Source: an uncultured Acidimicrobiia bacterium (lineage in GTDB: Bacteria; Acidobacteriota; Terriglobia; Versatilivoradales; Versatilivoraceae). Taken from it: a stretch of DNA of 64,000 bases. The stretch covers positions 1,164,127-1,228,126 of the forward strand of contig CAWBAT010000005.1 in assembly GCA_963786955.1 (NCBI GenBank), given 5' to 3'. The notes beneath the pieces are model-generated. The model made no database searches. It had not been told where the DNA came from and worked only from the letters and a program-made list of their open reading frames with translations. A program made the position numbers and the translations under genes. Positions 3,891 through 54,318 of this stretch are shown piece by piece. The first letter of the stretch is position 1. The number at the start of each line of letters is the position of its first letter.

Positions 3891-5543
3891 TTACCCCAAG
3901 TTCCCTTTTTTTAACTCTTCGGCCAAATAATCGGTGGCTCGCCAGGCCAAAGCCAAAATCGTCAGTGTGGGATTTTTTTCGGTAGCTGCGGGAAAGGCAC
4001 TTCCATCGACAACGAATAAGTTCTTCACATCGTGCATCTGGCAGAATCCATTGAGTGCCGATTGCTTGGGATCACTTCCCATGCGGCAAGTACCATGCTC
4101 GTGAATAGCCTTCCCTGGCTGATCCACAGTTCCTCGCTTGTAACCGATTAATTCTGCTTTGGCTGAATGCATCACCTGTTCGGCCGTGTCGTACATTTCT
4201 TCCAACATCTTTCGCTCATTGTCGCCAATCGAAAACACGATCTTGGGGAGCGGAACTCCATATGCATCGACGGGCGTCCCTTCCACGGTGATGTGGTTAT
4301 CGGCGCGGGGCAAGACTTCTCCGTAGGGGTGCATTGCGATCCAGGCCGGATAGCGCCGCTTGATCTCTTTCTTGAAGTCTGAACCAAAGCCCGGCAGCTC
4401 CGTTGCATAATGGCTGGCCCCAGGCTGACAACCAATCCCCCAGAATTGGGCGCCAAAACCGCGCAGATAGTCTCTGGGTTTGCCGCGATGGTTGAACCGC
4501 GGCATATAGAGATGCTCTCCTCCGATCCCGTCATCGTTGCTCGACGGAAAACCATAGAGGTCAGGAAGGAAACCGTGAACATGAAACCGTACCTGCTCGC
4601 AAAGGTATTTCCCGATAACTTCTGAGCTGTTTCCGATTCCGTTCGGATATTGACGGGATTTGGAATTTAAGAGGATTCGCGTGGAGTCGATGCACGACGC
4701 CCCCAGTACGACAACTTTGCCTTGTGCCCGGAATTCCTCTTTGGTATGGCGGTCAAAATACTGTACAGAACCGGCCCGGCCCCTTTCATTGGGAAGGATT
4801 CTTGCAACGACAGCGTTGGTTTGCAGGGTGAGATTTCCAGTCTCGAGGGCGTAGGGGATCAAATGATCAGCAGAACAAAAGAAGGAGGCTGTATCACAAC
4901 CCTTCCCACAGGCCCCACAATAGTGGCATGGTGGAAACCCACGATGGGGCTGGGTCAGCACTGCCCGTCGACCCGAAACCATCGGGATTCCGAGTTGATG
5001 AGCCGATCGCTTCAGGAGGAATTCTCCACAACGCATTCGCGGAGGAGGCATGTGGTAGCGGCTCCCAGGGAGGACATCGGAATCATCATTACCACCGCAC
5101 ACTCCGATGAGCTGATCAACCTTGTCATAGTAAGGTGCAATATCTTTATAGGAAATGGGCCAGGGAATTTCCCAGCCGTCGCGTTCGGCAGCCTGAAAGT
5201 CCAGGTCCCCATATCGGAGAGACACTCTCCCCCAGATGTTTGTTTTCCCTCCGAGTCCCCAGACTCGAGTTAAGTCAAACGGCTTACCCGGAGGCGTAAA
5301 ATAAGGTTGCTCTTGACGGCTCAAGAGGAAGTCGGGAGGATGCAGGCCGCGCTTCTCACGTTCACGGGCCTCATCCGGCCAAACATGCGTCCAGTATCCC
5401 TCACGCTTGAAACGCTCACCCGCGTCCAGCATCAGGACTTTGGCACCTTGGCGCGTCAAATTCCAGGCGGCTATCCCGCCAGAGGCGCCGGAACCGATGA
5501 CTACAACGTCATACATGACCTGGTTGGGAACTAAATCTTGCAT
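3891..5543 (-). CDS. GMC family FAD-dependent oxidoreductase
   Basis: N-terminal [13 protein letters not shown] Rossmann FAD motif. C-terminal GMC signature GTCRMG...VVDGSAFP. 550 aa. Confidence 0.8.
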
Positions 5544-6049
5544 GGGGATCTAAGTTAATATATAGAGACTGACACAATCTACAATCAGAAAAGAAACCTA
5601 CAAAGTGCGAACAATTCTAAGCTGTTGGAAAGGGAAGAACAAGCGGAAGTGAATGTGGTTTGAAAGATCGTGGCTGGCGCACTCGTGTGTTTTTTGCATG
5701 ACTGCGAAGAGTACACTGGTTGAAATTTTAAAGGCTTAAAGTTGATCCAGCTGGAAATTCTATCTTCTAAAAGTTAGGTGGTAATTTTGCTATGGACCCT
5801 CTGCCCTCCTATTGCGCCTTCCCGCAGACATGCACAAAACACATGGGTGCAACACTGGCCGTTTTCCATATTATGTTAAGGTATAATGTTTGATATTGGC
5901 ATCGGGCAAAACTGCCCGAAAACTCATGTTATCAGGGGAATCCTTCCTGTTAATCAATGGTTGGGCCATCCGAGTACTCTCGGGCTGAAGCCGAGCATAG
6001 CCGTAGGTTTCAATTGCCGCTGGCTTGCTCCTCGGTTACCATCGAAGGC

Positions 6050-6361
6050 ATGACGTTGATCCAAGCAATTCGCGCAAAGGTTTTATCGGGTGCTTTTGAA
6101 TTCTCGCAACACGCAGTTGACCAGACCATCCTACGACATATTAGCGTTCACGAGATCCGAGAAGCTATCAACGTGGGACAGGTGATCGAGGATTACCCGA
6201 ACGACAAGTATGGTCCCAGTTGCCTGATCTTGGGATTCACCCAGGCAGGACGGCCGATTCATGTCCAGTGCAGTTATGCCTCTCGCCTGTTGGTGAAAGT
6301 CATCACGACCTACCAACCCGATCCGAATGAGTGGGTCGAATACAAACAACGGAGAAAATAA
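6050..6361 (+). CDS. DUF4258 domain protein (putative toxin component)
   Basis: EDYPNDKYGPSCLILGFTQAGRPIHVQCSY and ITTYQPDPNEW match DUF4258. Start moved to ATG 6050 with GAAGG RBS; the longer ORF from 5957 is also possible. Confidence 0.55.
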   Translation: MTLIQAIRAKVLSGAFEFSQHAVDQTILRHISVHEIREAINVGQVIEDYPNDKYGPSCLILGFTQAGRPIHVQCSYASRLLVKVITTYQPDPNEWVEYKQRRK

Positions 6362-6362
6362 C

Positions 6363-6599
6363 ATGCCTGTTGATACGTCGGAAGAGACTTTTGTAGAACA
6401 GAAAGTAACCTACACCCTGGAAGTGCAAGGGCGTTTTATTATCATTGAGCATGTGCCCGCGCGCGTTTCGCTTCGCACAAGTGAACGATTCTTTTCTCCC
6501 GAGACGGTGGAGTGTCTCCAGAGGATTGTTTGGGAGCAAGGACCGCCCAGCCGTGTTATTGAAACCCCGGTGTTTGAGTATCCAGGCGTCATGGCCTAA
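6363..6599 (+). CDS. small partner protein, MqsA/YgiT-like antitoxin candidate (no zinc Cys)
   Basis: ATG at 6363 lies 1 nt after the DUF4258 stop, with GGAG 8 nt upstream. 78 aa. Adjacency and size fit the usual DUF4258 partner; sequence similarity was judged from memory only. Confidence 0.4.
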   Translation: MPVDTSEETFVEQKVTYTLEVQGRFIIIEHVPARVSLRTSERFFSPETVECLQRIVWEQGPPSRVIETPVFEYPGVMA

Positions 6600-6674
6600 C
6601 CACGGCATCACCCGACGCAAAACCGCGGCGGCGGGTGATGCCTCAGTCGTTCCGCCACAGAGGAGAGGATACTT

Positions 6675-7241
6675 TTGTTGGCAATTGTGAGTGACAACCT
6701 TGTCGTTGCCCAGCCGATCTCCGGCGGTTTTAGCTGGACACTCGCCTCGCGCATTTGCCAGATGATCACCAAGGCTGAGGCCCAGTTTGGCGCTCGGGAC
6801 CGGTCGTTCACCGTGTTGGGGGTTGAGTTCAGGAATGGAGTTCCGCAAGTTTGGTTCCCCGGTAACTGCGGACATGTCGTAGTCCAACTCGGTCTATCTG
6901 CGATGCAAGACCCGAACCGAGCGTTGTTTCAACTCGCTCACGAGTGTGTGCATCTTCTGGATCCCGCACCAGGAGCGACCAATAATCTCGAAGAAGGCGT
7001 CGCCACCCATTTTTCACTTGAGTTTATGCAAGCCGAACTTGGGTTAACTTATTCGACAGGCGACGCGAAGTATGACAGCGCGTGCAGTCTTGTGCGGTTG
7101 CTGATTTCGACGAAGAGTGATTCCGTCAGAGAACTTCGACGTTTACACGGCCCTCTACGTGGCATTACGACTCAACAGATTTCAGGGATTTGCCCAAGTT
7201 TGAACGCAGGAACTGCCAGCCAGCTAGCGAACCCCTTTTAG
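6675..7241 (+). CDS. HExxH-motif protein (putative zinc metallopeptidase-like, function unknown)
   Basis: TTG start preceded by AGGAGAGGA RBS. HECVHLL followed by NNLEEGVATHF (gluzincin-like HExxH...E). 188 aa. Confidence 0.45.
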   Translation: MLAIVSDNLVVAQPISGGFSWTLASRICQMITKAEAQFGARDRSFTVLGVEFRNGVPQVWFPGNCGHVVVQLGLSAMQDPNRALFQLAHECVHLLDPAPGATNNLEEGVATHFSLEFMQAELGLTYSTGDAKYDSACSLVRLLISTKSDSVRELRRLHGPLRGITTQQISGICPSLNAGTASQLANPF

Positions 7242-7359
7242 CGATGCCGGCCGAGCGAGGCGCTGCACCTGAACGGGGCCGCTATACTGGTTTCGCGCGA
7301 CATCAAGTTCTTGCTGCGGCCCCGGGAGCTTGGTCGTTAGAAAGATAAAAAAAGATCGT

Positions 7360-8085
7360 ATGGATAAAGAACACATCCTTTCTGAAATCAGACGTACGAC
7401 CGAGGAAAACAGAAACAGTCCACTAGGTATCGCCAGGTTTGAGAAGGAAACTGGAATAAAAGTGTGGGATTGGAGAGGAAAGTATTGGACTAGATGGGCT
7501 GATGCACTTGCAGAAGCTGGGTACAGCAACCCTAATGAGATGCAAACCGCTTACCCGGATGAATTCTTAATTGAGAAGCTCATAGAGCTAATCCAGGAAC
7601 TTGGTCACTTCCCTACAACAACCGAGCGCAGACTCAAGGGTCATCAAGACAAGAACTTCCCAACTCATAACACATTTTCAAGATTCGGGGGCAAAGCAGA
7701 CTTGATAGAGGCTGTTCTGAAGTATTGCGATACTCATGACAAAGATGCTGAAATCGTTGCAGCCTGCAAGGTAGCCGCTTCCACCGGAAAACTTCAGCTA
7801 CGAGATAGAGCAGGACCAGAACCAATCGAATTAGGTTTTGTTTATCTGATGAAATCAGGCAAATATTTCAAGATAGGCCGAACCAATTGCGCGGAAAGAC
7901 GCGAATTTGAGCTCCGAATCCTGCTACCTGAGAAACTTGAATTGGTTCATAAGATTAAAACTGATGATCCTTGTGGAATTGAAAAATATTGGCACGATCG
8001 CTTTAAAGACAGCCGCAAAAGTGGAGAGTGGTTTGACCTTTCGCCCAGTGACGTCAAAGCCTTCAAGCGACGGAAGACGATGTAG
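7360..8085 (+). CDS. T5orf172 / MUG113 (GIY-YIG-like) domain protein
   Basis: C-terminal GFVYLMKSGKYFKIGRT...EWFDL matches the T5orf172 domain. The gene is clearly AT-richer than its neighbours. Start taken at ATG 7360. Confidence 0.55.
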   Translation: MDKEHILSEIRRTTEENRNSPLGIARFEKETGIKVWDWRGKYWTRWADALAEAGYSNPNEMQTAYPDEFLIEKLIELIQELGHFPTTTERRLKGHQDKNFPTHNTFSRFGGKADLIEAVLKYCDTHDKDAEIVAACKVAASTGKLQLRDRAGPEPIELGFVYLMKSGKYFKIGRTNCAERREFELRILLPEKLELVHKIKTDDPCGIEKYWHDRFKDSRKSGEWFDLSPSDVKAFKRRKTM

Positions 8086-8276
8086 AACTGCCTAACGCCA
8101 TAGGCTGCACACTACGTCCACCGACCCCTTGTCCTCCATCATTTAAGGGCTGCCCCCTCCCCCCCCGGCCCTCTTGCAAAATTGGGACTTTCAAGGGATC
8201 ATGTGCTTCCTTAGATAGAAATAGAAACAGATAGAAACATGGCCCACATTATTCCGGGCGGGAAGGAATTCACCGA

Positions 8277-9302
8277 ATGAGTGGAAGGAAAACCCTGGGA
8301 GTTGTCTTGTTCCAACTTGGAGGTCCGGATTCTCTGGACTCCATTGAACCTTTTCTTCTCAATCTATTTCGAGATCCCGACATCATTGATTTCCCCTTTG
8401 CCAAGATTGCCCGCGAACCGTTGGCGAGGTTAATCTCGTCCTCCCGAGCAAAAAGAGTGAGGAATCATTATGCCAAGATCGGTGGCAAGTCTCCGATCCT
8501 GGAATTTACGAAATTGCAGGCACGAGCCCTAGAGGCGGAACTGCAGACGGTTTGCGATGCAAAGGTGCATATTGCGATGCGATACTGGCACCCTCTTACG
8601 AAAGAGGCGGTTCGTTCTGTGGAGCAACAGTTGCCGGAGGAAGTTGTATTGTTACCCCTTTATCCACAGTATTCCAAGACGACCACGGGCAGTAGCTTAA
8701 ACGAATGGGAACGTCAGACCCAAGTTTCTCCTATTGGCCGGATCCCGACTCGAACGGTTCGTGAATTTTACTCCTACCCGGGCTACCTCAGAGCCATTAC
8801 GAGCAGGATCAATGAAAGCTTGACCCGCTTTCCGCTTACGGAAGAAGTCCATTTTGTTTTTAGTGCTCACAGTCTTCCAGTCAGCGTGATCGAAGGCGGA
8901 GATCCTTATCGGGACCAGATCGAAAAGACCGTAGATCTGGTTCTGGAATGCGGCGGGTGGAGCTTTTCCCACACACTTTGTTATCAAAGCAAGGTGGGGG
9001 CGAGCAAATGGCTGCAGCCCTCCTTGCACGACACCATTCATCAGCTTGGGATGAAAAAGGTCAGAAATGTTTTGGTCATACCGATTGCCTTTGTCTCCGA
9101 TCATGTCGAGACTCTTAGTGAAATCGAACATGAAGCCCGGGAAGAGGCGGCTCATCACGGAATCCTGCAATTTGAAATGATGCGAGGACTCAATGATTCT
9201 CCTGAGTTTATTCAGGCTCTTGCCAAACTCGTGCTCAGCGAGTCAATGGATGCAAGTGCAAGAGATTTGGATCGAAAGGCGGTCAGGAGTTTTACCGGCT
9301 GA
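8277..9302 (+). CDS. hemH: ferrochelatase
   Basis: LGVVLFQLGGPDSLDSIEPFL N-terminus and a C-terminal PIAFVSDHVETL motif. 341 aa. Confidence 0.85.
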   Translation: MSGRKTLGVVLFQLGGPDSLDSIEPFLLNLFRDPDIIDFPFAKIAREPLARLISSSRAKRVRNHYAKIGGKSPILEFTKLQARALEAELQTVCDAKVHIAMRYWHPLTKEAVRSVEQQLPEEVVLLPLYPQYSKTTTGSSLNEWERQTQVSPIGRIPTRTVREFYSYPGYLRAITSRINESLTRFPLTEEVHFVFSAHSLPVSVIEGGDPYRDQIEKTVDLVLECGGWSFSHTLCYQSKVGASKWLQPSLHDTIHQLGMKKVRNVLVIPIAFVSDHVETLSEIEHEAREEAAHHGILQFEMMRGLNDSPEFIQALAKLVLSESMDASARDLDRKAVRSFTG

Positions 9303-9512: not shown

Positions 9513-10163
9513 GTGTCACAGATCTTTCATCGCAGCACCAATACAATTTCACGAGTCACCATTTTTGGGGCGATCTTCATTATCGCTGCACTCTTGACTG
9601 TGGCGCTCATGATTAATCGTTCCGGATACGTTACACAAGCCGACGTCCCTCGCGAGCAACCTGTACCTTTCAGCCACCAGCACCACGTGGGAGGAATTGG
9701 GATCGATTGTCGTTATTGTCACACGACTGTTGAAATTTCCCATTCCGCTAATATTCCGTCTACAAAGATTTGCATGAACTGTCATTCCCAAATATGGACG
9801 ACAAGTCCAACTCTCGAGCCCGTTCGTGAAAGCTTTCGCAAAGACAAATCTATTCCCTGGATTCGCGTTCACGATTTGCCGGATTACGCCTATTTCAACC
9901 ATAGCATTCACGTGAACAAAGGCGTTGGATGTTCAACCTGCCATGGGCGCGTGGATCGCATGCCGCTGGTTTGGCAACATGCCTCACTCCAGATGGAATG
10001 GTGTCTGGATTGCCATCGTCAGCCGGAAAAATATGTGCGACCTCGTGAAGAGGTGTTTGATATGGAGTACCAGCCGCCTGCAGACCAAATTGAGTTGGGC
10101 AGGAGACTCGTGAAGGAATACAAAATCCAAAGCTTAACACACTGTTCCACTTGCCACCGATGA
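9513..10163 (+). CDS. actA: Alternative Complex III subunit ActA (pentahaem cytochrome c)
   Basis: N-terminal TM anchor. Five CxxCH motifs (CRYCH, CMNCH, CSTCH, CLDCH, CSTCH). Confidence 0.85.
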   Translation: MSQIFHRSTNTISRVTIFGAIFIIAALLTVALMINRSGYVTQADVPREQPVPFSHQHHVGGIGIDCRYCHTTVEISHSANIPSTKICMNCHSQIWTTSPTLEPVRESFRKDKSIPWIRVHDLPDYAYFNHSIHVNKGVGCSTCHGRVDRMPLVWQHASLQMEWCLDCHRQPEKYVRPREEVFDMEYQPPADQIELGRRLVKEYKIQSLTHCSTCHR

Positions 10164-15986: not shown

Positions 15987-16013
15987 GTTAAAGACAGGGT
16001 CAAAGGGGTTCTA

Positions 16014-17198
16014 TTGATCGAGATTCAGGATGCAACTCTAAACTTACCCATTCTCCAAAGGGTGCAGAAGCGAAGCTTTGCCGCGGGCGGAATTTTTCTA
16101 GCCTTGTGCATTGGGGGTGCCATATCAAACCCCGACCAATTTTTTCGATCCTACTTATTTGCCTTCGTCTTTTGGAGCGGGATTCCACTGGGTTCCCTGG
16201 CGATCCTGATGCTTCAATACCTTACGGGGGGCGCATGGGGGATCATGATACGGCGGTTGCTTGAAGCCTCAACGCGCACATTGCCGATCTTGGCTGCACT
16301 GTTCGTCCCAATCTTTTTCGGGATGCAGCACCTCTATGAGTGGGCCCAGCCTGAAAAGGTGAAAGCCGACAAGATCTTGCAGCATAAGGCCCCTTATTTG
16401 AATATCCCTTTTTTTGCCTTGAGAACCGTCGTGTACTTTCTGGCGTGGTACAGCCTGATTTACTTTTTCAATAAGTGGTCGCAGCAACAGGATGACAACA
16501 AGGCGGCCCGGACAAAATTCAACGCGGAGAGTCTGAGCGGCCCTGGGCTTGTTATTTTTGGGGCTACCGCAACTTTTGCTTCTTTCGACTGGGTGATGTC
16601 TCTTGAGCCGCACTGGTATTCCACCATATTTGGCATGTATTACATGATCGGGCAAACCTTAACCACATTTTCTTTTACGATTTTGGTTTTGATCCTGCTG
16701 GCGGAGAGGAAGCCCTTGTCGGAAGTACTCTCACCCGAACACCTCCATGACCTGGGAAAGTTGACCCTTGCCTTCGTAATGATTTGGGCCTACCTGTCCT
16801 TCTCCCAATTCTTGATTATCTGGTCTGGAAATTTGCCGGAAGAAACACCGTATTATTTAAAACGTTTAGCCAACGGCTGGTGGTGGCTGCAACTTGCATT
16901 GATCTTGTTCCACTTTGCACTCCCGTTTATTCTATTGCTCTCACGGAGCTTGAAGAGGGCTCCTCGGCAGCTGATTAAAGTGGCGTCTTTGATCCTCTTC
17001 ATGAGATTGATTGATTTGTTCCTCCTGATAGCCCCTACTGGACACGATGGGCATTTCCGCATCCATTGGATGGATCTGGCTGCGCTCTTGGGAATCGGTG
17101 GCGTCTGGTTGGGAGTATTCTGCAGGACCTTGATTGCCCGACCAGTGCTTCCAGTTCATGATCCTGCGTTTGAGGAGGCGCTGCAAGGTGGCCACTAA
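16014..17198 (+). CDS. actF: Alternative Complex III subunit ActF (second NrfD-like membrane subunit)
   Basis: 394 aa polytopic membrane protein in the correct operon position. Confidence 0.8.
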   Translation: MIEIQDATLNLPILQRVQKRSFAAGGIFLALCIGGAISNPDQFFRSYLFAFVFWSGIPLGSLAILMLQYLTGGAWGIMIRRLLEASTRTLPILAALFVPIFFGMQHLYEWAQPEKVKADKILQHKAPYLNIPFFALRTVVYFLAWYSLIYFFNKWSQQQDDNKAARTKFNAESLSGPGLVIFGATATFASFDWVMSLEPHWYSTIFGMYYMIGQTLTTFSFTILVLILLAERKPLSEVLSPEHLHDLGKLTLAFVMIWAYLSFSQFLIIWSGNLPEETPYYLKRLANGWWWLQLALILFHFALPFILLLSRSLKRAPRQLIKVASLILFMRLIDLFLLIAPTGHDGHFRIHWMDLAALLGIGGVWLGVFCRTLIARPVLPVHDPAFEEALQGGH

Positions 17199-22331: not shown

Positions 22332-22447
22332 TTGGCGGGAAAGACATTGTTTCCCCATTCTAATTTTTCGCAGCTTGAAGACGAATTGCCGCTGGGCACA
22401 CGGTTAGCCTGCTATCGAGCAAAATTCCTTAATCTGAAGGGGGAAGG

Positions 22448-23227
22448 ATGAAACACAAGGAGTTCAAGAACAACCCGTTGATTGAGGCCCAGGTGGAAAT
22501 CCGCTGGGGGCAGGCCGACCAGAGTGGATCCGGTATCAAAACGGATCCTTATTACAAAATGACATTAGGCCGCTTCTATGAGCGAGTCATGGAAACTTAT
22601 CCTGTCCATGAAATCCTTCCTGCTTCGAAATTCCCCGAAACCATGGTGTATCATACGGCTCAACACCTCTTTCGGGTTGGGAACGGCAAATGGCCTGCCA
22701 TCCAGATTGGACCCGGGATTCTTTCCGTTCATACGAGAGAAGAATACCTGTGGGAAGATTTGGCGACGAAGGCACAAGACGCCTTATCCCAATTATTGGA
22801 TGCGTATCCGAAAATGGTCGAAATGCGGATCGAGATGATTCGATTACATTATATTGATGCAGTCAATCTTGATTTCAACCGGGAGAACGTCCTGCAGTTT
22901 TTGCAGGAAAAATTTAAGACTAACATCGAACTTCCCCCTTCTCTCTTCTTAGATGGGCACGTTAGCTCCCGCCCCAAGAGCTTTTCCTGGGAAGCGACCT
23001 TTGAAGAAGATCAGCCCGAGGGGAGCATCACGATTCGTTTTTCAACCGGGGAGCGGGATGCACGTCCTGCCCTTCTCTGGGAAACTATTGTAGAGTCTTC
23101 CGGTCGCCAGTTGCCCCCCCTTCCGAGTGGGATGGGTCATTGGCTCAACCAGGCTCACGTCCTGGCTGAAGACTGGTTTTCTAAGTTTATCGAAGGGGAT
23201 TTAGAAAAAGATTTTGCCGGTGCCTAG
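22448..23227 (+). CDS. conserved hypothetical protein, TIGR04255-like
   Basis: NPLIEAQVEIRWG N-terminus resembles the TIGR04255 family. 259 aa, no TM segments, no catalytic motif recognised. Confidence 0.45.
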   Translation: MKHKEFKNNPLIEAQVEIRWGQADQSGSGIKTDPYYKMTLGRFYERVMETYPVHEILPASKFPETMVYHTAQHLFRVGNGKWPAIQIGPGILSVHTREEYLWEDLATKAQDALSQLLDAYPKMVEMRIEMIRLHYIDAVNLDFNRENVLQFLQEKFKTNIELPPSLFLDGHVSSRPKSFSWEATFEEDQPEGSITIRFSTGERDARPALLWETIVESSGRQLPPLPSGMGHWLNQAHVLAEDWFSKFIEGDLEKDFAGA

Positions 23228-37135: not shown

Positions 37136-40100
37136 ATGAAACCAGAGGATCTGCTTTTAGCGGCCGAACTGGATTCCGCAAAAGCTTCCCAGATTCTAAA
37201 GAAATACGGATTTAAAGATCCGGAATGGGGCAGACCGTAATCTGCAGTTGATGGCTGAGGACCTCTCAACCCGTCTCATTCTGGCCCGAATCATCGGAAT
37301 TTATTGGAAGCTGCCAAGAAATGTCCCGACCCTGACTCTGCCATCAATTACTTTGAAAGACTTTTGGCCAATGTAGCGCATTCGAGCAATTTCTTGGGAT
37401 TTCTGGGAGATACTCCTGAAGCGCTCGAGGCCCTGATCCTTCTGCTTGGAACCTCCCCGTTCAGCGCCGAGATTCTGATCCGAAACCCCGAATACTTCTA
37501 CTGGATCCTGGATGAGTTGGGGACTCCGTGGATCAAGCCGTCATCGGCTTATCTTCAAGAAGCGCTGCAGGCGAAGGAGCCCTTTGAAGATGGAGAGCAG
37601 CAGTTGCGGGCACTCGGCCGATCTCAAACGGCGGGAAATCCTACGAATCGGCGCCAGAGACATTTTGAGAGCTGCAAACGTACTGGGGACAATTACCGAG
37701 CTTTCAAATTTAGCCGATGCTGTTTTGCAATCTATTTACTCCATATGCTTTCAGAACCTGGCTGGGAAACATGGCATCCCTTGCTTTCTGGATGCGTCAG
37801 GTAAATTGAGAAGGGCCCGGTTTACAATTCTAGCAATGGGAAAACTAGGCGGGTGCGAACTCAACTACAGTTCAGACATTGATCTGATTTTTATCTACGA
37901 TGGGGAAAACGGGAATACGACATCCGCTGAAAGCCTGCTGGAATCCAATCAACCGGGAGATCCAGAACGGACGCCCGCTATTTCTACAATCCCCCGGCCT
38001 CCAATTCTGGAAGATCTAAAATCCATTTCAAACACCGAATTCTTTACCAAGCTTGCCCAAACCATTACGCACGAACTCTCGAGTATGACTGAGGAGGGAT
38101 ATTTCTACCGAGTGGATCTCCGACTCCGCCCCGAGGGGAGTGCCGGTCCGGTGGCGAGTTCATTCACGGCCTGCAAAAACTATTACTCCAGCTGGGGGGA
38201 AACTTTTGAGCGAATGGCGCTGATCAAAGCCCGACCGGCAGCAGGTTCCACGGAGCTTGGAGACGAGTTCTGCAAAGCCTTCAACTCTTTCGTTTACCGG
38301 AAGTTCTTGGATTTTGCCGCTTTAGAAGAGATCCAGGAGATTAAGACTCGGATTGAATCAAAACTGACTGCCAGGAAAAAAAATGTCCGGCACGTTAAAC
38401 TCGGAGCGGGCGGGATCCGTGAAATTGAATTCTTCGTCCAGGCGCTCCAGTTAATCTATGGAGGTCGAAATCCGCAAATACAGGACCGCAGCACGGTCAA
38501 GACGCTCAGCCTTCTGCAGGGGAACCAATTTATTTCTACCGACGAGAGTGCAGGACTGCTGGATGCCTACTGTTTCCTGCGCGACTTGGAGCACAAGCTA
38601 CAGATGGTTAATGAGCTCCAGGCCCATGAACTTCCCGAAGACGAGGAGGAACTCTACAAATGTGCCCGGCGAATGGGCTTTCTGGAAAAGTCTCGTGCCG
38701 AGACGATCAAAACATTTTCTGAAAAAATATGAATCACACACAACCTATGTTCGGGATCGCTTTCAAAAGCTTATTTCTCTGAAGAGAGACGAGTGGTCCG
38801 GCGGCCAGATGCGAGAGGCCTCTCTGATTCTCAGCAAGAACCTCTCAAAACAGGAAGCCTTGGAAATCCTTGACAGACCGGGGTTCGAAGACCTCCAGAC
38901 AGCTTATAATCAAATCTGCTTGCTCCGCGATGCTCCTTCGTTTGCCCACTCGCCCTCAAAGATGCGCAATTTGCTGGCGAACCTCATGCCATCCCTTCTT
39001 GAGACCCTCAGGGTTAGTCCTGATCCGGATACAGGCTTGAACTTCTTCGAGCAGTTTGCCAGTGCATTAGGAGCCCGCGATTCTCTATACACTCTCCTGA
39101 ACGAATCCCCCAATGCTCTTCACAGTCTCATTCGAGTTCTCTCCAGCAGCCAGTTTCTCGCGGATTTTCTTTGCCGAAACCCCGAATTCCTGGATGCCAT
39201 TATCAAACTAGAATATTTAGAAGAGGCAAAACAACTTGAAGAATACAAATGGCAGATCAGAGAGATCCTTTCGGAGGAAAACAGCTTTGAGAATCGTGTT
39301 CAGGCCCTCAGAAAGCTTACACGAGGAAGAACTATTCCGCATTCAGGTAAGGGATGTCTTGGATCAATGTGATCGTCCATTGGTCGGTAAACAATTGGCT
39401 GCCTTGGCGGAAGCATGTTTAGAAGGGGCATTTTTGCTTGCCTGCCAAAGACTGGAAGAGCATGAAATGAGTTCCTTTCAGTCATGGGCGCAAGATCACT
39501 TTGTCATCCTTGCCCTTGGAAAATTGGGGGGAAATGATCTGAGCTACCAATCGGATTTGGATCTTGTCTATTTCTATTCGGTTGATTCAGAGACGAATTC
39601 GATCGGACGCAACGCCGCCTCACTCGTTTGGTAGAACAAATCGACCAGATACTAAGCGTCTCGACAGGAAAGGGCGCGATCTACAAGATCGACACCCGCC
39701 TCCGTCCTGAAGGAAAGAAAGGTGGATTAGTCACCCCTTACTGAAATACCAGCAATATCTCGAACATCGAGCCCAGCCTTGGGAACGGTTGGCGATGGTT
39801 CGCCACCGCTTATGATGGGGAGCTCAAGAAATCGTGCCATGCATTCTGAAATGGTGAGGGGCTTTGTCTTTCAGTCGGAATTTCCGTCCATCCGTGGTCA
39901 AGGAGATTGCCCATATCCGTCACCGAATGGAAATAGAATTGGCGAAAGAGGCTGAAGAAAATAGTTTTCATATCAAGGCAGGGGCTGGCGGGTTAGTGGA
40001 TATTGAGTTTGCCGTACAAATGATGCAGTTGAAACATGGGTGCCGGCATCCTGCTTTACAGATTTCCAATACTCTTCATCGCCCTGACGGAAATCAGAGA

Positions 40101-48785: not shown

Positions 48786-50363
48786 TCACTGATTCCTCTT
48801 AATTTTCAAGGTCTGGACAAAGTCAAAATTTCCAGCCGGAGACAACTCGATTTCCGAAAGGCGACGGTTGTACACGCAAACGGTGTCCATATACCAGAGG
48901 CTGATGTAGGGCAGATCATCAGCAAGAATCTTTTGAATTCTGGAATAAGCCGTACGTCTTTTCTCCAGGTTGGACTCTTGGCGGGCCTCATCAATCAGCA
49001 GGTCCACTTCAGGATTCTCGTATCGACCACGATTATACCCTTTAGGGGGAACTTCGCGGGAATGGAACGCTCTTTCAAAGAGGTCGGGGTCATTATTTCC
49101 TCCAATCCATCGCAGTGAGTAAATTTGAAAATTGCCTCTCACAATGTCTGCATAAAAAGTGCCGAATTCGTAGGAACGAAGGTCCACCGCAATGCCAACC
49201 TCCTTCAAGGCTTGTTGAATAATTGCAGCCACCTGTCGGGAAGACTCCTCTGTAGAGGTCCTGAACGTCAATCTAAAACGTGGCAGAGGCCCCTTGCCAT
49301 CGGGATCTTTCCAGCCAGCCATGTCGAGCAGATTACGGGCCTTTTCCGGATCATAGGAATAGCGCTCCAACTCGGGCTCATAAGCCCAGTGATTCGGAGG
49401 AAGCAAACTCGAGGCTGGGATAACCAGACCGCGCCAATAGTAGCGGATAATGTCCTCCCGTGGAATTGCATAGGCAATTGCTTTTCGTACTTTCTTATCC
49501 CGAAGAACGAGATCTTTGAGATTTAATCCGATGTACTGGTAATTGGTTCCTGGAACAGCTCGCCACTCGAAGATGGGGTTCGCGCTAAGAGCCATCACGA
49601 AATCAGGGGTCAACACGTTTTGAGCAATATCAATGGATCCCTTTCGTAATTCCAAAGCCCGGGTTGTGGAGTCCGGAATGACCATAAACCGGATGCGGCC
49701 TGCGGCGGGGGAGTCCTCCGAAATAGTCGAGATTTGCTTCGAGAAGAAGTTCTTCTTCGTGCGAGTAAGAGACAAAACGATAGGGGCCCGAGCCTACCGG
49801 GTTGCGTTGAAAGTCTTTGCCCGACCCATAGGGTACGATCCCAATCCCTCCGTTTGTCAAGTTCCAGAGAAATCCGGCAAAAGGTTCCTTCAACCGGAAA
49901 ACAATGGTGTGCTCATCCGGTGTTTCTATCGACTGGATAAGCTGGAAGGTGGAAGATTTCGGGGAAACGAGCGAGCCATTCAGGAGAGATTCAAAGGTAT
50001 ATTTCACATCCCTCGCCGTCAGTGGACCTTCCGTCATGAAACTTCACTCCAGACCGGAGGTAAAAGCAGTAGGTCAGTGGATCGAGGGATTCCCAGCGGG
50101 TCGCAAGGTCTGGTAGGATTTCAAATCTTCTTCCCCTACGGACCAGAGAACTAAAAATCAGTTGTTGAATTCGTTCCGATTCCGCACTTAATCCAATGCG
50201 AGGATCCAGACTGGTAGGTCCGGCTTCCAGCGCGATCGTAATGGCTGGGTCCATGGTGCGGGGATGACCCGCAGCCCTGATGAACACCAGCGAGTATCAA
50301 ACCTAATACGAGCCACATAGTTTTCCGGGAGCAAAAAATTTTGACTTGTAAGGATTTGAGCAT
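48786..50363 (-). pseudogene. ABC transporter substrate-binding protein, family 5 (peptide/nickel), 3 frameshifts
   Basis: Lipoprotein signal (MWLVLGLILAGVHQGC) followed by SBP_bac_5 segments split over 4 frames. Confidence 0.65.
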
Positions 50364-51702: not shown

Positions 51703-54318
51703 TTATTCTTCTACTTTCGATTTAAATTCATTCAATTTTTGCAAAGCCTGTAGAGGAGTAAGCTCGTCAGGATTTATTTGGCGGAGTTCTTCAAGCACTT
51801 CATGATCACTCAGGACAAACAAATTCAGTTGATTCTCCAAGGAGGTTTGCTTTCGTTTGAAACTTCGCGTCAGTTGATCGCTGATTTCGTGTTCCCCCTC
51901 TTCATGCTTTTTCAGAATGTCGCGAGCTCTTTCCAAGACGCTGGAGGGGAGGCCAGCAAGCCTGGCGACTTCAATCCCGTAACTCTTATCTGCTGCTCCC
52001 GGCTCCACCTTTCGAAGAAAAATAATTTCTTGACCCACTTCCTTGACGGAGACATGGTAGTTCTTCACTCCAGGCAAAAGATCTGCCAGCTCGGTCAGTT
52101 CATGGTAATGAGTCGCGAACAAGACTTTGGAACGCAAGTGACAATGGAGGAATTCGATGACTGCCCAGGCTATCGCCAATCCATCAAATGTGGCTGTTCC
52201 GCGTCCAATTTCATCCAAAATGACAAGGCTTCGGGAAGAAGCGGCATTGAGAATCACTGCCGTTTCGGTCATCTCAACCATAAAGGTGGAGCGGCCGCGT
52301 GCGAGATTATCGGTTGCGCCGATTCGAGTGAAAATACGATCAATCAGCGGCAATCGCGCATAGTCTGCCGGGACAAAAGAACCCATTTGCGCCATGATGG
52401 AAAAAAGAGCCGTCTGCCGGAGGTACGTCGATTTTCCTCCCATGTTTGGTCCGGTAATGATGAGGATTTGATCGGTGGAATCATTTAGATAGAGATCATT
52501 GGGAATGAACTTTCCAAGCGAAAGTTGATCGGTGAGCTGTTCGATGACCGGGTGGCGACCTCCTTTCACGATAAACTCGCCATCGGGTGCAATTTCTGGT
52601 CTGACATAAGAATGGGAATGCGCCACTTCAGTGAGAGAAATCAAGCAGTCTAATTGTGCCAGGGCCGATGCGCATCGCCTGATCCGTCACTGCTTCCAGC
52701 GCAACTTTGGAACGAAGTTCTGTAAAGAGCTCATATTCAATTTCTACCATCCGGTCTTCTGCCCCAAGAACTTTACGTTCATATTCCTTTAGTTCAGAAG
52801 TTGTAAACCGCTCAGCGCCGACCAGGGTTTGTTTCCTTTCGTAATGTGAAGGAACCAGGCCCAGATGGGACCTGGACACCTCGAGGTAATATCCAAAAAT
52901 GTTATTAAACCTTACCTTTAGATTACTAATCCCGGAAAGAGAACGTTCACGGGACTCCAATTCTGCGATAAATTGCTTCCCTGAGGTACTGATCTGACGA
53001 AGCTCATCGAGCTCACTATGGTAGCCCTCTCGAATCAATCCGCCCTCAGTGAGCAGGATAGGAGGGTTATCTTTTAGAGCTTTTCCGATGAGTTCGGCAA
53101 CGTCCTCCAATGGATCTGCCAAGTGGTTCAGTTCTTGGAGGCGCCGCGTGGCGAATGATCCCAAGCGGGTTTTGAGGAAAGGGATTTGTTCCAGGGATTG
53201 TCGGAGAGCGACAAGGTCCCGCCCGTTGGCTGTAGACAGCGTTACCTTGGAAAGCAATCGCTCGACATCGTAGACCTTCTGAAGAAGTTTCTTAATTTCT
53301 TCGCGCTCGATCAATTTCCCTTTTAGTTCAGTAATGACATCTAGCCGCAATTGGATCTCGTTCAAATCAATTTCAGGGCGCAGCAACCAGCTTCTGAGCA
53401 ATCGTGCGCCCATGCCCGTCGAAGTTCGATCCAGACAAGAAATCAAAGTCGCATGTCTGGTACCGTCGAAGAGAGATTCCACTAACTCAAGGTTACGGAC
53501 CGTCGAGGAATCCAGTACCAGTGCTCCGCTCAGATCGTAGTATTTCAAATGGTCGATATGGCTTAGCCGGGCTTTCTGGGTGTCCTTCACATAATGTAAA
53601 ACTGCTCCAGCCGCGGCCACAGCGAGCTTACGATCCTGGCAACCGAATCCTTCAAGGCTCATCACTCCAAAATGCTCGGTCAGCGTGCGTTCGGCGTAGT
53701 CTGTCGAAAAGATCCAATCTTCAATGATTGTTTGTGACGGGATAAACTGGACAATTTGGTGAAGCCTTTCGTGCGGCGGGAGAGAGGCATGAATCAGTTC
53801 TTTTGGTCTAAGGCGTTCTAGCTCGGTCTGAAACTGTTCAAAGCGTTTTCTCCCTTGAACTCCGTGGTCTGAAAGTCTCCCGTCGAAATATCGAGGGAAG
53901 CCAGGCCCACGCCGCTCCGATCTACCCACAGGGCACTCAAGAAATTGTTCTCCTGTGGTTCCAACAGGTTTCCGTCGGCAACCGTACCCGGAGTCAATAC
54001 TCGGCTGACTTCCCGTCGAACCAGTTTTTGTGAAGGTTTGGGTCGTTCAACTTGGTCGCAGACGGCAATTTTGTATCCTTTCCTGACGAGTTTTGCCATA
54101 TAACTGTCTGCGGCGTGATACGGGACTCCACACATGGGTACGGACAGCCCTTTTTCCTTGTTTCGGGAAGTGAGGGTGATCTCCAGTTCACGGGAGGCGA
54201 CTACAGCGTCCTCAAAGAAGAGTTCATAGAAATCCCCCAGACGAAAGAAGACGAGCGCATGCGGATATTCTTTCTTCACCCGATGGTACTGCGTCATCAT
54301 AGGGGTTGAGGGTTCCAT
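51703..54318 (-). pseudogene. mutS: DNA mismatch repair protein MutS, reading frame broken twice
   Basis: N-terminal mismatch-binding domain ([30 protein letters not shown]), core, and C-terminal ABC ATPase (ITGPNMGGKSTYLRQ, DEIGRGT) in three overlapping frames. Junctions near 53818-53929 and 52628-52644. Confidence 0.85.

Follow-up and report, generated by a model that had tools for sequence, protein, structure and literature searches.

Between a GMC oxidoreductase gene (3891-5543, minus strand) and hemH (8277-9302) in the 64,000-nt stretch of DNA analysed here (the window, in whose positions all coordinates are given) lies a run of four small open reading frames (ORFs). They stand between the start of the GMC gene and hemH, are all on the plus strand, and form three units separated by spacers of 75 and 118 nt, which from their limits are likely to be the remains of an integron cassette array. 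The first unit is a toxin-antitoxin (TA) pair, the second a single HExxH gene and the third a gene that joins helix-turn-helix (HTH)-like repeats to a GIY-YIG domain:

6050 to 6361, plus strand: DUF4258 toxin gene (RelE/ParE superfamily, PF14076), 103 amino acids (aa), probably starting with the ATG at 6050
6363 to 6599, plus strand: gene of the 78-aa partner, a predicted antitoxin, MqsA-N/YgiT-like (TIGR03831, 20.1 bits)
6675 to 7241, plus strand: gene of a predicted stand-alone gluzincin-like metallopeptidase, 188 aa, with H89-E90-x-x-H93 … E106-E107-G and no Pfam model
7360 to 8085, plus strand: gene of HTH-like repeats plus a GIY-YIG (MUG113/T5orf172) domain, a predicted nuclease of 241 aa (PF13455, PF10544)

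A scan with hemH, taking one genome per species, gave 80 loci, 79 of them titled as Acidobacteriota-type metagenome-assembled genomes, whereas hemH had no match in an exact-sequence look-up. The closest relative (L001) shares 93-96% aa identity with the window in DUF1028, GMC, hemH, ActA and ActB and contains none of the four window genes, its GMC gene and hemH lying 292 bp apart. In local alignments approximately 2.47 kb of the window (5679 to about 8152) stand against 57 nt at the empty site of L001, with breakpoints between 5678 and 5679 and at about 8152/8153, homology ending at 5678 on the left and resuming at about 8153-8163 on the right. In L002, the next relative that keeps this gene order (70-81% aa identity), the spot is occupied by a different gene, of 129 aa and on the minus strand. 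Because L001 is empty and L002 has a different gene, the site is variable and the segment 5679-8152 is accessory, being absent from the closest relative. L001 (CAWEPG010000016.1) is titled ‘uncultured Acidimicrobiia’ while the titles of the remaining 79 hemH relatives read Acidobacteriota, Terriglobia or similar, and the L001 label is probably a taxonomic misassignment. The locus is thereby divided into three segments:

5544 to 5678, no strand assigned: native GMC-hemH intergenic DNA outside the insert, aligning with L001 9709-9847
5679 to 8152, plus strand: accessory insert of about 2.47 kb, replacing 57 nt of the L001 empty site
8153 to 8276, plus strand: native DNA upstream of hemH, with the poly-C tract and the GATAGAAAC repeats, aligning with L001 about 9899-10000

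A sequence-only reading of the window had started an accessory islet at 5544 and taken a poly-C tract and ATAGAAA-type repeats as its downstream edge. Both features exist as it described them (8153-8166 and 8213-8240), but they belong to hemH-upstream DNA common to L001; against the empty site the insert begins at 5679 and its right edge lies at about 8152. The same reading had proposed a comparison of GMC-hemH synteny in relatives, and L001 answers it with the two genes side by side and the four small genes missing. The poly-C tract reads C5TC8 in the window vs C7 in L001, and the GATAGAAAC (ATAGAAA-type) repeats form approximately three tandem units vs one, differences that may affect expression of hemH or may in part be homopolymer sequencing error.

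A metagenome scan with the T5orf172 protein returned 10 loci. Close homologues (74-85% aa identity) occur in runs of small genes on one strand with many TA pairs (HEPN/NT, HicAB, Phd/ParE and DUF4258 pairs), and the spacers in these runs are canonical attC sites (GCCTAAC-AAGTC-…-GTTAGAC and GCATAAC-…-GTTAGGC in L092, GCCTAAC-AAGCC-…-GTTAGTC in L090). In eight of the 10 distinct contexts the ATG is preceded by GTTRRRY at a distance of approximately 20-25 nt and the stop is followed by RYYYAAC at 5-15 nt. In a four-way DNA alignment the window is 86, 81 and 71% identical to L090, L092 and L094, respectively, from GTTAG (7336) to GCCTAAC (8096), while the 60 nt flanking this interval at each end are 23-43% identical. 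The homology of the T5orf172 unit is thus bounded by a core (G|TTRRRY) and an inverse core (RYYYAAC) and ends there, a pattern that is read here as the signature of an integron cassette. No paper in the library searched names both T5orf172 and an integron.

The C-terminal 80 residues of the T5orf172 protein match PF13455 (53 bits, cutoff 22.3, E 5e-14) and PF10544 (31.9 bits, cutoff 20, E 2e-07), and a weak Pfam match to the ‘homing endonuclease associated repeat’ falls in the N-terminal part. Across 23 T5orf172 sequences Y162, R181, E208, K171, G173 and the EWF tail are invariant and I172 is present in at least 90%, such that a domain above threshold and the conserved Tyr, Arg and Glu place the protein in the GIY-YIG superfamily. 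The N-terminal 140 residues form helical HTH-like repeats with two invariant cysteines. In a structure model with a predicted local distance difference test score (pLDDT) of 80, the N-terminal helices resemble a TetR-type HTH and the C-terminal domain resembles SLX1, HIGLE and I-TevI. The protein thus shares the Tyr, Lys-Ile-Gly, Arg and Glu residues and the fold with T5orf172/MUG113 GIY-YIG proteins and with the SLX1, HIGLE and I-TevI domains, but differs from them in the added HTH-like N-terminal repeats, in a 241-aa architecture for which a nuclease role is predicted, and in being carried as an integron cassette.

The T5orf172 protein has homologues with 85% identity in a record labelled Deltaproteobacteria and 71% in Planctomycetota records. 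At L090 (898-2203) and L091 (659-1964), labelled Deltaproteobacteria, the 85%-identical T5orf172 cassette is followed by a different cassette of DUF4258 and a 66-aa protein, where the DUF4258 pair is itself a cassette and the two cassette types adjoin a second time. The 5.1-Mb contig of L094 contains three near-identical attC-type repeats of approximately 160-170 nt (1675-1834, 4321-4480 and 8074-8232) among at least 14 same-strand small genes (HEPN/NT, HicAB and the T5orf172 homologue), with an insertion sequence (DDE_Tnp_1) inside the run, which looks like a large sedentary chromosomal integron.

The ends of the HExxH unit can be placed by a homologue at L086, which is 72% identical and stands between two canonical attC sites (ACCTAAC…GTTGGGC upstream and GCCTAAC…GTTAGGT downstream). 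The window GTTCCGC (6649-6655) aligns with the upstream core GTTGGGC of L086, at the start of the HExxH cassette, and the window GCCGAGC (7250-7256) aligns with the downstream R'' GCCTAAC. Other homologues adjoin AbiEii-like, HepT-like and TIR, DUF3825 and DUF4160/DUF2442 genes, and in the five contexts none adjoins a T5orf172 gene or a DUF4258 pair. Upstream of another homologue (L087, 1385-1470) an attC-like hairpin has mutated AAC and GTT triplets (GTCTAGC … CGTAGCG), and because of this hairpin att-site decay around the HExxH cassette family seems to recur.

The HExxH protein has no match in Pfam (E ≤ 0.1), NCBIfam, PHROG or PADLOC. Its profile search gathered 1569 family representatives at 50% identity, nearly all of about 190 aa, and in the family alignment H93 and E107 are invariant while H89, E90 and E106 are found in at least 90% of sequences. 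The structure model (pLDDT 96.9) combines the HExxH motif and the downstream Glu on a thermolysin-like fold, the combination that marks gluzincins (MA(E)), such that the protein is modelled as a stand-alone gluzincin of an undescribed family and predicted to be a zinc metallopeptidase with an M1-like catalytic fold. The family motif HECVH…LEEGVA, invariant or nearly so, recalls the HExxH and the distal Glu in xEG of M1 aminopeptidases, but the likeness is in fold only. There is no Peptidase_M1 match and the GxMEN motif is absent from the family alignment. Unlike M1 enzymes, the window protein is a lone 188-aa domain without the M1 N- or C-terminal domains, has a spacer of 13 residues from H93 to the Glu of EEG (E107) where M1 enzymes have 18, is 10-17% identical to them in sequence with no Pfam model matched, and belongs to a family set among TA and defence-type cassettes.

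In the TA unit the DUF4258 protein matches PF14076 at 3e-22 (79.1 bits, cutoff 25). At the DNA level homology with L105 and L110, two solitary TA loci, extends from approximately 20 nt before 6050 to the stop of the partner, and GAAGG stands 4 nt upstream of the ATG at 6050, which is probably the start rather than 5957. As this homology begins only about 20 nt before 6050, the toxin would be of 103 aa with approximately 370 nt of insert-specific non-coding DNA ahead of it. The partner follows the toxin stop after a 1-nt gap and belongs to a very large and tightly conserved family of 76-78-aa proteins (3571 homologues, some of which JGI names YgiT-type), and the same pair, with the partner always second, recurs in the unrelated neighbourhoods of L105, L110 and L111. 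A toxin domain above its curated threshold and a conserved, abutting small partner are the features of a type II TA module. Searches of PDB sequences with the toxin and with the partner gave no matches.

DUF4258 has been placed in the RelE/ParE superfamily with its activity listed as unknown, and DUF4258-MqsA fusions have been described (PMC11980606). Since it is a member of this superfamily the DUF4258 toxin is, by analogy, probably an RNase. The partner comes closest to YgiT_finger (TIGR03831), at 20.1 bits vs a cutoff of 20.2, C51 being its sole cysteine, with the four zinc cysteines lost and the HTH domain absent. Lacking the zinc ribbon and HTH of the MqsA/YgiT family it falls outside that family as defined and is at best MqsA-N-like in fold. 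The unit therefore resembles MqsR/MqsA-like type II modules in its order, with the toxin gene first and the small partner 1 nt behind, and in the sole family match of the partner, to the YgiT/MqsA N-terminal zinc-ribbon domain. It differs from them in that the partner is of 78 aa with one cysteine, no zinc site and none of the C-terminal HTH of MqsA, and in that the toxin, DUF4258, belongs to another family than MqsR.

Each of the three units is followed by a stretch in which parts of an attC site can be recognised by eye, clearly at the first (both boxes and a hairpin), in part at the second and only as R'' at the third:

6594 to 6655, plus strand: attC-like site 1, with R'' GCCTAAC at 6594-6600, a hairpin at 6604-6642 and R' GTTCCGC at 6649-6655
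7250 to 7342, plus strand: attC-like site 2, degenerate, with an R'' remnant GCCGAGC at 7250-7256 and R' GTTAGAA at 7336-7342
8090 to 8147, plus strand: remnant of attC site 3, with R'' GCCTAAC kept at 8090-8096 and a possible R' relic ATTTAAG at 8141-8147

At site 1 the GCCTAAC overlaps the stop of the partner gene and is followed by a hairpin with 15-nt arms that are complementary at 14 of 15 positions (93%), then by a 6-nt spacer and GTT, and the fold has a z of -3.07. Site 2 has a stem of 8 bp, GGGGCCGC/GCGGCCCC (7275-7282 / 7316-7323), and its R', GTTAGAA, is the 5' boundary conserved among T5orf172 cassettes. At site 3 the T5orf172 stop and AACTGCCTAAC are conserved in L090 and L092, where a full attC follows. 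Because of this boundary homology the window sites are regarded as attC-derived remnants, a designation that stops short of calling them functional attC sites. RNAalifold on six canonical attC sites did not recover the R''/R' pairing, and two heuristic scans for AAC…GTT combined with folding were dropped, as they gave many matches in GC-rich coding DNA and did not discriminate.

The 5' part of the insert is of another kind. Two features were noted there:

5679 to 5850, no strand assigned: 28-nt inverted repeat with a 116-nt loop, arms at 5679-5706 and 5823-5850, at the left breakpoint
5875 to 5887, plus strand: weak candidate for a core-like site, GTTAAGG with TATAAT after it, where the TA cassette may have its 5' end and a promoter, read from the sequence

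The arms of the inverted repeat are 86% complementary and its DNA fold has a z of -2.63. It has no Rfam match and no second copy in the window or the fetched loci, and its interpretation as an attC site or a repeated mobile element was rejected, the GTT/AAC polarity being wrong and no other copy being found. The first approximately 350 nt of the insert have no homologue in the data examined. The candidate at 5875-5887 is similar to the leader GTTAGTC…GGTATAAT that the DUF4258 cassette has in L090, but the promoter scan did not call it, and the promoter and terminator scan as a whole found no more than chance. A search of 5400-8400 against Rfam gave only a sub-threshold snoRNA match, attributable to chance.

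Profile scans upheld the presence and the identities of the four same-strand small genes named in the sequence-only reading (DUF4258, small partner, HExxH and T5orf172/GIY-YIG). Its view that the stretch is AT-richer than its flanks did not survive a compositional scan, in which 5544-8276 had a GC of 0.494 where the window averages 0.500 (z -0.5, at the 37th percentile among windows of its length). The AT-rich non-coding start that it described is real in so far as 5544-6049 has a GC of 0.449, within the lowest 2%, but the most AT-rich piece of it (5544-5678) is native and common to L001. The three units differ in GC, at 0.50 (TA), 0.54 (HExxH) and 0.45 (T5orf172). The T5orf172 gene, at 0.448, is in the lowest 0.4% of same-length windows (z -2.56), the HExxH gene, at 0.538, is above the window average, and the two short intergenic spacers are at 0.64 and 0.68. 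In tetranucleotide distance from the rest of the window the insert is equalled by 8% of windows, and 500-bp windows are equally AT-rich at no fewer than six other places. As the insert taken as a whole is unremarkable in GC, GC3 and tetranucleotide distance, and the entire region is ordinary, composition was rejected as evidence of transfer or acquisition.

The failure of that reading to find an integrase was confirmed, as no tyrosine-recombinase box II motif occurs in the six frames of the window and Pfam scans of 20 larger, otherwise unscanned ORFs (257-576 aa) found 18 housekeeping proteins, two without a match and no recombinases. No intI pseudogene is visible in the window, although a six-frame hidden Markov model search was not run. 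Of the acquired addiction or defence islet that it proposed, the accessory nature stands, given the empty site in L001, as does the presence of an addiction-type module, the DUF4258 TA pair, but PADLOC recognised no known defence system. In PADLOC-DB v2 three of the proteins were unmatched and the T5orf172 protein gave only a marginal match to PDC-S57 (17 bits, E 8e-4) over the GIY-YIG core, and scans with PADLOC, NCBIfam and PHROG made no system-level assignment. What the sequence-only reading missed is the cassette organisation with attC-derived spacers.

The insert is therefore likely to be a short, decaying array of three integron-type cassettes without an integrase, in the GMC-hemH intergenic region of a probable Acidobacteriota chromosome, comparable to an attC-site cluster that lacks an integron integrase (CALIN). 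Each unit would hold one or two ORFs, all facing the same way, and behind them an imperfect palindrome with …AAC and GTT… at its limits, the first cassette being the TA pair, the second the 188-aa zinc metallopeptidase and the third the HTH-like GIY-YIG nuclease. The units would have been built and moved by integron-integrase recombination. Recombination at a genomic site other than an att site may have brought them here, or else homologous replacement with DNA of a donor or strain that already had the array, and subsequent decay of the att sites would have left the array fixed. The TA pair would act as an addiction module that makes the array hard to lose, while cassettes 2 and 3 may serve in conflict or defence. 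Such cassette nature would account for the absent integrase, the absent direct repeats and the non-uniform composition. Integron cassettes are reported to be rich in conflict and defence functions.

CALINs have been defined as two or more attC sites with no nearby intI, most of them being small and 95% lacking intI pseudogenes (Cury et al. 2016, PMC4889954). Insertion of cassettes at non-att genomic sites with a GWT target has been shown experimentally and proposed as a source of small CALINs and of single attC sites lacking an integron integrase (SALINs; 10.1101/2022.09.11.507474), and TA cassettes stabilise chromosomal integrons, as shown in work cited in 10.1101/2024.07.02.601686. The window locus agrees with CALIN and SALIN-attG loci in having no intI nearby (within its 64 kb) and in four closely spaced ORFs on one strand, with small self-promoted or promoter-less genes in one orientation and palindromes bounded by AAC…GTT. 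It further agrees with them in being small (three units) with a TA cassette, and in lying in an ordinary chromosomal intergenic region for which a relative has the empty site. It differs from them in that its attC sites are degenerate and left unscored by a self-built covariance model, in that the 350 nt at the start of the insert match nothing in the cassette model and no GWT target is readable at the junction, where the intergenic DNA of L001 is too diverged to place an exact crossover by alignment, and in that its host is a probable Acidobacteriota. To our knowledge Acidobacteriota are not among the groups in which integrons have been most studied. The L001 sequence TTTTTTCAAGGG resembles both window 5692-5700 and 8142-8149, the spacer being strongly diverged, and this resemblance to both ends of the insert hints at a split target.

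Several observations weigh against a cassette array. The R' of site 1, GTTCCGC, is off the consensus GTTRRRY. The R'' of site 2 has AGC for AAC and its fold is no better than that of shuffles, while site 3 has neither R' nor stem, a fold that is not significant, and a remainder that resembles the L090 attC but is unpaired. Six canonical attC sites were built into a covariance model that found no significant match in the window, but this model generalises poorly, its score for a genuine attC in L097 being only 14.5 bits, and says little in either direction. The 5' end of the array (5679-6030, with the 28-nt inverted repeat) misfits the cassette model. The TA pair occurs elsewhere as a solitary, non-cassette unit between housekeeping genes (L105 and L110), and what speaks for a cassette here is one hairpin and the GCCTAAC that overlaps the partner stop. 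The evidence for boundaries of core and inverse core covers the T5orf172 unit and, by alignment with L086, the ends of the HExxH unit, but not the place where the TA unit begins. Finally, with two genomes compared, the event may be an insertion here or a deletion in L001.

Some of these points would suit a generic TA or defence mini-island brought in by illegitimate or homologous recombination, with no part for an integron and with the GC-rich hairpin spacers as terminators or chance palindromes, although on balance this is judged improbable. The DUF4258 pair without attC between housekeeping genes elsewhere, the folds of two of the three spacers, which do not beat shuffles, the window sites unscored by a self-built model that was weak on L097 and the lack of an integrase in the window are all what it would predict. 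It leaves unexplained why the homology of T5orf172 stops at GTTAG and GCCTAAC in four independent contexts, why GTTRRRY and RYYYAAC keep fixed distances in most of the contexts sampled, and why the ends of the HExxH unit align with the attC boxes of L086, and the hairpins are not followed by the T-runs of terminators.

Acquisition of the four genes as a single unit, forming one defence or abortive-infection system of toxin, antitoxin, antitoxin-removing protease and nuclease effector, is decidedly unlikely and was rejected because the neighbours are not conserved. The set is not repeated in the five HExxH and approximately ten T5orf172 contexts besides its source, the neighbours all being different, the TA pair is complete alone elsewhere, no PADLOC system matches, and the units differ in GC. 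The tight packing of the genes on one strand would fit a single system, as would the renewed adjacency of T5orf172 and DUF4258 cassettes in L090 and L091, and a peptidase beside a TA pair recalls systems under protease control, such as those of IrrE/ImmA-type proteases and CapP, which are weak structural neighbours. It is less probable still that the T5orf172 gene moved in by itself as a free-standing homing endonuclease, dragging its neighbours along. A GIY-YIG core with conserved Tyr, Arg and Glu, DNA-binding-like N-terminal repeats with a weak homing-repeat match, high conservation across records labelled as different phyla (85% to the Deltaproteobacteria-labelled one) and a foreign composition would fit such an element, but the gene stands at the 3' end of a 2.5-kb insert rather than alone, no conserved target flanks it across loci, and the core and inverse-core sites that bound it in most contexts are a sufficient mechanism of mobility.

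Read as a decayed cassette array, the vague AT-rich islet becomes a mechanistically defined element. The origin of integrase-less arrays is debated between loss of the integrase and insertion at genomic sites, and the window and L001 would provide a natural pair of filled and empty sites for this question in soil bacteria. Two widespread and uncharacterised cassette-borne families, the minimal M1-like peptidase and the HTH–GIY-YIG nuclease, would be candidates for the defence screens now being applied to integron cassettes. It may tentatively be proposed, with considerable doubt, that the HExxH gluzincin and the HTH–GIY-YIG protein are undescribed single-gene conflict or anti-phage cassettes in environmental integrons and that the locus is a natural non-att array insertion in Acidobacteriota. 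As TA-bearing CALINs are common, the element itself is of a known kind and would not surprise specialists.

Beyond the immediate neighbours of the insert, DUF1028 lies beside the GMC gene and alternative-complex-III-type genes lie beyond hemH. Elsewhere in the window, the ORFs at 15987-17198 (403 aa, in a respiratory cluster) and 22433-23227 (264 aa, in a sugar-modification cluster) have no Pfam match at E ≤ 0.001. GlnE (37479-39372) is divided between two frames that overlap, the ORF with MutS domain V (51703-54046) overlaps another upstream of it, and of an SBP_bac_5 protein there is only a middle part (48786-49793), these housekeeping genes, which look split or partial, being either frameshifts of a long-read assembly or pseudogenes.

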